Shown here piece by piece: positions 38,061 to 39,820 of a stretch of DNA of 64,000 bases. The notes under the pieces are model-generated. The model had not been told where the DNA came from and did not search any database. It saw only the letters and a list, made by a program, of their open reading frames with translations. Source of the DNA: a virus (lineage: Duplodnaviria; Heunggongvirae; Uroviricota; Caudoviricetes); IMG/VR virus record IMGVR_UViG_2513237361_000012, positions 1 to 64,000 of that record; one strand, written 5' to 3'. Both the position numbers and the translations under genes were made by a program. Position 1 is the stretch's first letter. Each line of letters begins with the position of its first letter.

Positions 38061-38663
38061 ATGCGCCGCGCTAATGATCCCCAACGGCGAGAAAAAATCA
38101 TTCAGGCCACGCTGGAGGCAGTGAAACTTTACGGGATACATGCCGTTACGCACCGTAAAATCGCTACCCTCGCCGGAGTGCCGTTAGGATCAATGACCTA
38201 CTATTTTTCAGGAATTGATGAGTTGTTGCTGGAAGCGTTTAGCCGTTTTACGCAGACGATGTCGCGGCAATATCAGGCTTTTTTTGATGATGTCAATGAC
38301 GCCCCCAGCGCCTGCCAGGCCATAACAGACATGATCTACAGCTCGCAGGTCGCAACGCCGGATAACATGGAACTGATGTACCAGCTCTACGCATTGGCCA
38401 GCCGAAAACCGCTATTAAAAACGGTGATGCAAAACTGGATGCAGCGTAGTCAGCAAACGCTTGAACAATGGTTTGAACCGGAAACTGCCCGGGCGCTGGA
38501 TGCTTTTATTGAAGGGATGAGTCTGCATTTTGTCACCGACCGTAAGCCGCTATCGCATGAGGAGATTTTGAGGATGGTGGAGCGAGTGGCAGGGCTGGAG
38601 ATAAATTTCAGGCAACAAAAAAACCATTTATGTAAACGGGTTAATGAAAACAATAAGTTATAG
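38061..38663 (+). CDS. rcdA: TetR-family transcriptional regulator, 3' end apparently replaced by prophage junction
   Basis: N-terminal TetR HTH; start at MRRANDP; C-terminus longer than my recollection of E. coli K-12 RcdA. Confidence 0.75.
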
Positions 38664-38836
38664 TAAAAACAATAAGTTGGGTTGGTGGTCAGTGGTGGTT
38701 ATTACGGGGTAATGCCAACCGCTGCCGCCACTTTGTCGCCACTTCAACTCATTAGGATCTATCTACTGTATTGGTAATATCGAATGTTAGGGTTTAAAAT
38801 TTCATACTGTTATTATTTTGTATGTTATATTGGTTT

Positions 38837-39820
38837 TTATATTTCTCCCCAAATAGGGGTAGTTTCTGCTATAAAAAAATCAACACTACATCCTTCTTTT
38901 GACAAAAATCGCTGAGCATTTGCTTTGGCTTTTTTGTTGTTTTCATCATTTTCATTGCCATAAATACTGACAAATACTTTAGTTACTTTACTTTCTCGAA
39001 TTTGATCAAATATATGCCTATCGTTCTCATCCATTGAATGTCCATATATAAATAATGTTCCTTTCAACTTACGTAGGGCACTGTAGCAGAAATTTAAATA
39101 TGGATTGTGGAGAATTCTTTCTTTTTTCTTTTCACTTGTTGGCTCGGAAACAAAAAGAGGGAAAGCGCCTTCGTCTAAATTCATCTGAACCTGTTCGATA
39201 ATAGTATTACCATTATCGCCATTTGCATGTTTCTTTATTGACGAGCCTTGCTCATACAAATGTAGAGCACCATGCAAGAAAAATACATTTTGATCAGTGT
39301 TATAGCGTTGCCATGTTCTCCCACTCCTAAAGCCATCATCTGTATCAAAGGTTAAAGGATCAAGGTTTTTTTTATTTCTAGCCCAATACATTAATAAATC
39401 ATAGTTAAGTGTGAACAATCTTTCAAAATTAGATAAGAAAGACCTTGCGAAAGAAAATTGTCTATCTGATATTTGATGAGGATATGTCGGATGAGAATTA
39501 GAAATTGCATTTATTAGTGCCGTTTTCAGGGCTTCTTGATGTTCATTAATTAGGTTTATCATTTCACAATGAGGATCATAGTGTTTAATGATTCTATTTG
39601 CTGATGAAAGTTTATCCATTACTGACTCAAAATCAAATGTATTAAGCTCTTGAAACAGTTTTCTTATTAAATCGTCATGATCGCCAAAGTTGGCATTATC
39701 GAGAATACTTCTATAATTAAATATTTGTGGAGACCACGCTTGTGAAAAACCATTTCCCATCAGTAATGATGGTTTTTCCTCTTGTGGTAAGGAAGAGAGG
39801 GCTTGTGCAAATGTGTGCAT
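38837..39820 (-). CDS. SIR2-like (DUF4917-like) protein, candidate NAD-depleting defence effector
   Basis: Motifs LLMGNGFS (Rossmann GxGxS), FTLNYD and FFLHGAL resemble SIR2-family signatures; strongly AT-rich; between host junction and int. Confidence 0.5.
   Translation of the reverse strand: MHTFAQALSSLPQEEKPSLLMGNGFSQAWSPQIFNYRSILDNANFGDHDDLIRKLFQELNTFDFESVMDKLSSANRIIKHYDPHCEMINLINEHQEALKTALINAISNSHPTYPHQISDRQFSFARSFLSNFERLFTLNYDLLMYWARNKKNLDPLTFDTDDGFRSGRTWQRYNTDQNVFFLHGALHLYEQGSSIKKHANGDNGNTIIEQVQMNLDEGAFPLFVSEPTSEKKKERILHNPYLNFCYSALRKLKGTLFIYGHSMDENDRHIFDQIRESKVTKVFVSIYGNENDENNKKAKANAQRFLSKEGCSVDFFIAETTPIWGEI

Follow-up and report, generated by a model that had tools for sequence, protein, structure and literature searches.

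The stretch of DNA analysed here (the window) covers 64,000 nucleotides (nt), positions 1 to 64,000 of the tailed-phage record IMGVR_UViG_2513237361_000012 in IMG/VR. In it, the bacterial regulator gene rcdA (ybjK) runs directly into a 186/P2-like prophage. The analysis dealt with this junction, with the C-terminus of the regulator that is formed there and with the genes that the prophage carries. The following features lie at the junction.

38061-38663, plus strand: rcdA (ybjK) open reading frame (ORF), 200 amino acids (aa), hybrid C-terminus; ATG at 38061, stop at 38661-38663.
38595-38627, plus strand: host-native read-through codons 179-189, from alignments and from the 191-aa prophage-free allele P0122.
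38601-38627, no strand: attachment (att) core of 27 bp, ATAAATTTCAGGCAACAAAAAAACCAT, common to attB, attP and attL/attR; rcdA codons 181-189.
38628-38744, no strand: P' arm of attP, 98.6% identical to the attP region of phage KP12.
38702-38744, minus strand: int remnant of 43 bp, the last 14 codons and the stop (ending GDKVAAAVGITP), matching the 3' end of KP12 int.
38745 to about 39937, minus strand: AT-rich cargo module of 1.2 kb, about 32% GC, inserted in the 3' end of int.
38837-39820, minus strand: DUF4917/PDC-S21 gene, 327 aa; PADLOC PDC-S21 at E=9e-122, Pfam DUF4917.
39928-40947, minus strand: tyrosine integrase (Int), 339 aa, with Int_N and Phage_integrase domains.

The rcdA product contains the TetR-family domains TetR_N and TetR_C_31 (Pfam). 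Over residues 1-178 it is 94% identical to E. coli RcdA, and it matches the RcdA structures 5X5I/7ACL in the PDB at E=1e-110, as expected for an orthologue. The gene order ybjI-ybjJ-rcdA is also kept, with ybjJ and ybjI upstream of rcdA in the window. E. coli RcdA has 178 aa and ends in ERVAG. The original prediction, made from the letters of the window, had noticed an excess of about 20 codons and an AT-rich end of the ORF. The exact excess is 22 codons (200 versus 178 aa) and the ORF indeed ends in AT-rich prophage DNA, the GC content dropping from about 50% in rcdA to 29-37% over 38600-39900.

The position of the junction was determined by alignment to the attB sites of E. coli and E. marmotae. 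Host identity stops at 38627/38628, where identity to the KP12 attP goes on. More precisely, attB homology ends after AACAAAAAA(C/A)CCAT at 38627 and the phage match begins at 38628. According to the alignments to attB and attP, residues 1-189 of the protein are host-encoded, and residues 190-200 together with the TAG stop are phage-encoded. The core at 38601-38627 has the layout ATAAATTTCAG-NN-AACAAAAAACCCAT and was found in attB of E. marmotae and E. coli, in attP of Klebsiella phage KP12 and in attL/attR of phage 4LV2017, whose annotated attL and attR (KY271398) both contain it. In KP12 the true attP lies between ogr and int and matches window positions 38601-38744 at 98.6%. The core occurs once in the 64-kb window, with 0 copies expected by chance. 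Thus, as expected of an attL, the sequence switches abruptly from host to phage at a short core that attB and attP have in common, and an integrase gene lies near the junction, 1.3 kb from the core with the cargo between them. A 186-like junction with its att core in the last codons of rcdA had been foreseen, and the core occupies codons 181-189, integration altering the C-terminus of the protein.

We had also considered 38744/38745 as the prophage boundary, where the alignments to BL21 and KP12 diverge. This was rejected, as 38628-38744 belongs to the KP12 attP. The left half of the core retains host-specific bases in lysogens of E. coli. Therefore, strand exchange probably takes place in the right-hand half, and the crossover may be assigned to the AACAAAAAACCCAT block, an invariant 14 bp.

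Which host carries the junction decides how the extension is to be read. The rcdA region of the window is only 87-89% identical to that of 5419 complete E. coli genomes. Contig AEME01000001.1 of assembly GCA_000208565.2 encodes exactly the 200-aa RcdA, as well as the unique chimeric tail-fibre protein found at the end of the window. We take this assembly to be Escherichia sp. TW09308, a member of cryptic clade V, that is, E. marmotae. The RcdA protein cluster is labelled 'Escherichia marmotae' in database names. The host is E. marmotae TW09308 and not E. coli, and for annotation K-12 is the wrong reference for this window.

A scan of genome contigs with a degenerate pattern of the stop region returned three E. 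coli-type loci only, none of them from E. marmotae, and the protein cluster together with an exact-protein look-up supplied the prophage-free reference. In E. coli the stop region reads GCA GGG TAG TAG ATA AGT TTT AGA TAA, and in the window GCA GGG CTG GAG ATA AAT TTC AGG CAA. Comparison with a K-12-like genome, NCTC8623 and BL21(DE3) shows that substitutions in the host-derived part have removed all three in-frame stops of E. coli. At the TAG position of E. coli, CTG/CAG is found in E. marmotae and in other non-coli Escherichia. Two prophage-free loci of E. marmotae encode an RcdA of 191 aa that ends in KTHQP before the stop, with ybjL directly after. This native form was found in 61 blocks of the sequence collection and is shared by E. 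whittamii and other non-coli Escherichia. Native rcdA of E. marmotae thus reads through the core and ends 6 nt past it, whereas in E. coli the rcdA stop precedes the core by 6 nt, which makes the core intergenic and leaves RcdA unaltered by integration. Of the 22 extra codons in the window, 11 are native to the species and the last 11 come from the phage, where they replace the native QP and stop for a net gain of 9 aa. The original prediction had named a reference RcdA with the same extended C-terminus as a sign that the junction lies elsewhere. The correct reference is indeed extended, to 191 aa, but its tail is different and shorter and the junction still falls within the ORF.

Two other origins of the extension were weighed against these data. 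In one, insertion of the prophage into the last codons of a K-12-like, 178-aa rcdA made the whole extension of 20-22 codons, which was also the original assumption. The ORF does end in phage DNA with the junction inside it, which fits. However, NCTC8623 and BL21(DE3), E. coli lysogens that share this prophage and junction, keep the TAG stop and an RcdA of 178 aa, the first 11 extra codons are host sequence as in the 191-aa protein of prophage-free E. marmotae, and 30 nt separate the E. coli stop position from the junction downstream of it. We regard the prophage as very improbable as the sole source. It lengthens the regulator in E. marmotae because this species already lacks the E. coli stop codon. 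The other origin would be a base error at the stop codon, arising in sequencing or assembly, and the TW09308 record is presumably an older assembly of draft quality. Against such an artefact, three separate in-frame stops differ from E. coli, and the exact 200-aa protein is present in 65 independent blocks of the collection, including other assemblies and one metagenome, next to the 61 blocks with the native form. The hybrid protein is therefore not a sequencing error, and the chance of an artefact is negligible.

Some observations weigh against reading the junction as an attL. At 38619-38627 the core of the window has an A7CC variant, AAAAAAACCAT, where all attB, attP, attL and attR sites compared have AAAAAACCCAT (A6CCC). 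The variant changes Thr188 to Asn in RcdA and is common to all 65 blocks with the exact 200-aa protein. In addition, the core was defined from related phages and not from the two ends of this element, attR being seen only in phage 4LV2017. Finally, a second core (attR) was not found in the 64-kb window or in the next 10 kb of the chromosome. The alignment to a prophage-free reference that had been proposed from the sequence hence placed the att core but not the distal boundary. Homology to the intact prophage of E. coli NCTC8623 stops at 63681, inside the tail-fibre gene H. From this break and the lack of a nearby attR it follows that the prophage is rearranged or truncated in this strain.

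Taking these points together, 38601-38744 is very probably the attL junction of a 186/P2-like temperate phage integrated beside rcdA in E. marmotae, the phage supplying the last 11 codons and native read-through the rest. In this mechanism a phage carrying retron Ec67, historically retronphage phiR67, would have integrated via its tyrosine integrase at the 27-bp core just past rcdA. In E. marmotae the stop codons are substituted, such that native rcdA reads through the core to 191 aa. Recombination would have joined host codons 1-189 to the P' arm of the phage (11 codons and TAG), giving the 200-aa hybrid RcdA. The insertion of a SIR2-fold DUF4917 gene into the last 14 codons of int would account for the cargo immediately inside the junction.

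The consequence of the new tail for the regulator was considered separately. It might be functional, either as lysogenic conversion of a biofilm/stress regulator acting on stability, dimerisation or DNA binding, or by convergent transcription of int and cargo that damps rcdA. Integration does alter the protein sequence, and cargo and int are transcribed toward the 3' end of rcdA, a terminator scan of the junction finding no minus-strand terminator-like site between 38837 and 38663. Near the junction 9 promoter-like sites were counted versus 8.0 in shuffled sequence, and 5 terminator-like sites versus 2.0 (standard deviation 1.6). With promoter-like sites near the shuffled level, terminator-like sites somewhat above it and none of the latter on the minus strand, the scan supports no regulatory claim. 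Against a function of the tail, it lies past the structured domain (the PDB structures of RcdA span residues 1-178 only), and among relatives in the Enterobacteriaceae RcdA tails differ freely in length and sequence, with proteins of 178 to 206 aa. In E. marmotae the RcdA tail also depends on the P2-like phage, others yielding LCKWVNGNNKLE and LCKWVSENNDLQDNQ; in E. coli this phage leaves the ORF unchanged, and the tail bears no sign of selection. A functional tail is accordingly quite improbable. Because the structures end at residue 178 and the tails vary so widely among relatives, we judge with high confidence that the hybrid tail, which follows the folded TetR domain, is most probably neutral in function.

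On the phage side of the junction, the P' arm contains two direct 18-nt repeats, TAATGAAAACAATAAGTT (38642-38659) and TAGTAAAAACAATAAGTT (38661-38678), 19 nt apart. They are kept in KP12, 813R9 and 4LV2017 and are candidate arm-type Int sites. The P' arm is present in 1133 of 5426 E. coli genomes (21% of complete genomes). In most of the E. coli loci sampled, arm and int are contiguous with a span of 280 bp, which means that there is no cargo. Residues 1-336 of the window Int agree with KP12 Int at 99% identity and are followed by a new 3-residue tail (MNNA, stop) in place of the ancestral 14 residues. As the tail of Int is replaced and the missing 3' end is found at 38702-38744, the cargo must have been inserted within the int coding sequence. 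The same near-identical, cargo-bearing phage occupies one site in two host species, which points to independent integration events and hence to an Int that is active despite its altered C-terminus. The insertion would thus show that Int without its last 14 residues still integrates.

The protein encoded by the cargo was analysed by structure prediction. A single-sequence AlphaFold run gave a predicted local distance difference test score (pLDDT) of 42. Therefore, the prediction was redone with a 57-sequence alignment, and the AlphaFold2 model reached a pLDDT of 92 and a predicted template modelling score (pTM) of 0.89. The top Foldseek matches of this model in the PDB were all SIR2 proteins, with 8SXX (the SIR2 protein of SIR2-HerA) at E=1e-8 and a template modelling (TM) score of about 0.5. 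Classical sirtuins matched at E=1e-4 to 1e-3. A sequence search of the DUF4917 protein against the PDB gave no match, and SIR2 was seen by fold comparison only. By its model, the cargo protein is of the SIR2/Rossmann fold, in agreement with the SIR2-like neighbour that had been named in the original prediction. Invariant residues in the DUF4917 alignment include NGFS at 23-26, N139, D141 (N139-x-D141) and H183. DUF4917/PDC-S21 is a defence candidate of PADLOC only, and its anti-phage and NAD+-consuming role is putative. PDC-S21 was not mentioned in any paper found in the literature search. For a DUF4917 protein of C. jejuni, sirtuin activity has been reported (PMC10421069). The window protein resembles this sirtuin (SliP) and the SIR2 anti-phage effectors SIR2-HerA, ThsA and DSR in its SIR2/Rossmann fold. 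It differs from SIR2-HerA, ThsA and DSR in being encoded by a single gene of 327 aa with no HerA, TIR, SLOG or pAgo partner nearby. In the lysogen the cargo is probably co-transcribed with cI-int.

Cargo at this position is not confined to the window. P2-like prophages have a minor defence hotspot at the att-int interval, in which 3% of P2 systems are located (PMC13586616). The window agrees with the hotspot described in that 2026 paper in that its cargo-bearing phage occurs in both E. coli and E. marmotae, and differs in that the insertion point is resolved within the int coding sequence, leaving a 43-bp int remnant. The DUF4917 cargo itself is carried by only 4 E. coli genomes among the 5426. 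With essentially identical breakpoints, BL21(DE3) contains an unrelated 0.5-kb cargo that encodes a hypothetical protein of 110 aa. For this protein and for a DUF6414 neighbour in K. oxytoca, neither a Pfam nor a PADLOC defence match was obtained. Homologues of DUF4917 with 74-88% identity adjoin the rcdA orthologue in degraded P2-like remnants, at three loci each in K. oxytoca and Raoultella. In the K. oxytoca remnants int is gone, and CI and ogr are kept. This arrangement suggests that the DUF4917 cargo can outlive its phage.

The remainder of the prophage is made up of the following features.

41343-47107: 186-type early region with CI repressor (minus strand), apl-like gene, CII (CP76), Fil, DUF5347, DUF2732, TraR/DksA zinc-finger protein, Dam and A.
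41343-41918, minus strand: CI repressor, 186-type.
43779-44696: Dam methylase, in the early region.
44693-47107: replication endonuclease A, in the early region.
47871-48929, minus strand: PD-T4-7 homologue (PADLOC E=9e-144), in the A-to-portal hotspot and adjoining the retron.
49414-51342, plus strand: retron Ec67 (Eco2, type I-C), with a candidate msr-msd at about 49414-49546 and RT-Toprim at 49582-51342.
51384-52412: portal gene.
51384-63681: P2-type late genes, namely portal, terminase, capsid, lysis, baseplate and the 5' part of tail-fibre gene H.

The original prediction had placed the Ec67 element at this chromosomal region, and the retron was recovered within the prophage. Its RT-Toprim protein (reverse transcriptase with Toprim domain, 586 aa) is 100% identical to PDB entries 9I2F/9LM3, 'Retron Ec67 protein'. 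It scores 705.7 bits with NCBIfam NF038237 (cut-off 450) and is classed by PADLOC as RT-Toprim_I-C. The candidate msr-msd at 49414-49546, read from the sequence, has the inverted repeats ACGCATGTAGGCAGA and GCCTGCATGCGT (also ACGCATGTAGGCAG and GCCTGCATGCGT). In msr-msd the branching G sits in the context of a CAGA motif (PMC6868368). At the gathering threshold no Rfam family matched anywhere in the window, including msr/msd and att-associated RNA. The A-to-portal interval, in which both the retron and the PD-T4-7 homologue lie, is a known defence hotspot (PMC9519451). With DUF4917/PDC-S21 added, the defence or candidate-defence loci of this one phage number three, and it also carries an orphan Dam.

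The prophage was then compared with known elements. rcdA lies at 19.06% of a K-12-like chromosome, and the 1990 work of Hsu and colleagues reportedly placed the Ec67 site at '19 min'. According to later citations, the element that harbours Ec67 is 34 kb long, includes Dam and has direct repeats of 26 bp on either side (Hsu et al. 1990, cited in PMC7826664), and the retron itself was located in a 186-related prophage, with cos on one side and a terminator on the other (Dodd & Egan 1996, cited in PMC6868368). The window shares with this phiR67/Ec67 element a 186-related prophage, a dam gene upstream of gene A and Ec67 between gene A and cos/portal, the order dam, A, retron and portal being evident from the coordinates above. 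The reverse transcriptase is 100% identical, the duplicated core has 26-27 bp, and the chromosomal site is next to rcdA. Differences are the host, E. marmotae, the DUF4917 cargo in int and the right third, which is missing or rearranged; the comparison draws on published descriptions of phiR67.

Among isolated phages, KP12 and 4LV2017 (Klebsiella Elveeviruses, Peduoviridae) come nearest, with about 95% nucleotide identity over 76% of the prophage. KP12, 4LV2017 and vB_EcoM-813R9 share with the window an identical attP core and P' arm and an Int with 99% identity, and 813R9 adjoins rcdA in E. coli. In contrast to the window, these three phages have an intact Int of 350 aa, no cargo between int and att, and other cargo in the A-portal hotspot, e.g. 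a retron St85-family system in 4LV2017. Coliphage 186 (Eganvirus) is similar in its CI with Phage_CI_repr/CI_C domains, CII (CP76), Fil and gene A, and in its P2-type late genes. Presumably, phage 186 differs in using another att site and in having neither dam nor a retron.

A near-identical prophage is that of E. coli NCTC8623, to which window positions 37913-63681 align at 99.64% identity in a single 25.8-kb alignment (L016, 1-25765). This alignment includes about 0.7 kb of rcdA flank at only about 88%, and the prophage part from 38628 on is near-identical. Such similarity implies a recent spread of the same phage across E. coli and E. marmotae. NCTC8623 had also been tried as a source of attR and was dropped, since the prophage crosses the record origin into a duplicated, frameshifted copy; the attR of 4LV2017 was used. 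This second, partial copy in the NCTC8623 record (fragments of the reverse transcriptase gene, portal, terminase) stands just after the record start and is probably an assembly artefact or a tandem duplication.

Both ends of the window contain DNA of other prophages. Beyond 63681 the DNA is lambdoid, with holin, Q, nin genes, DnaB, O, cII, cro, cI, N and sieB. Here, the 186-like prophage adjoins the lysis/late-regulation end of a lambdoid prophage (63681-64000, and L021 at 11000-21182), a fusion that may stem from an inversion or a deletion. The chimeric H protein that results has 393 aa and is unique to this one contig. At the other end, a Mu-like transposable prophage fills window positions 1-36253, with a MuA-type transposase at 32954-35041 and a repressor at 35421-36008. 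Its insertion in ybjI leaves about 172 of the 271 aa of YbjI, and host DNA follows from about 36254.

The phage type, the retron, the att site and the habit of P2-like phages to carry defence cargo have all been published before. New is only the read-through of rcdA across the core in non-coli Escherichia, by which integration comes to make a hybrid tail. The scientific weight of this is small, and its practical value lies in annotation. In non-coli Escherichia the length of RcdA, 191 aa when native and 200, 201 or 204 aa when hybrid, can serve as a flag for occupancy of the att site and for the type of phage arm. A wider biological meaning is a long shot. Lysogenisation by P2/186-like phages in non-coli Escherichia might rewrite the RcdA C-terminus each time and, with antisense cI-int-cargo transcription into rcdA, amount to a species-specific lysogenic conversion. 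If true, the att site of a very common phage family would lie within the rcdA coding sequence of non-coli Escherichia, and its occupation would alter phenotypes of a biofilm/stress regulator.

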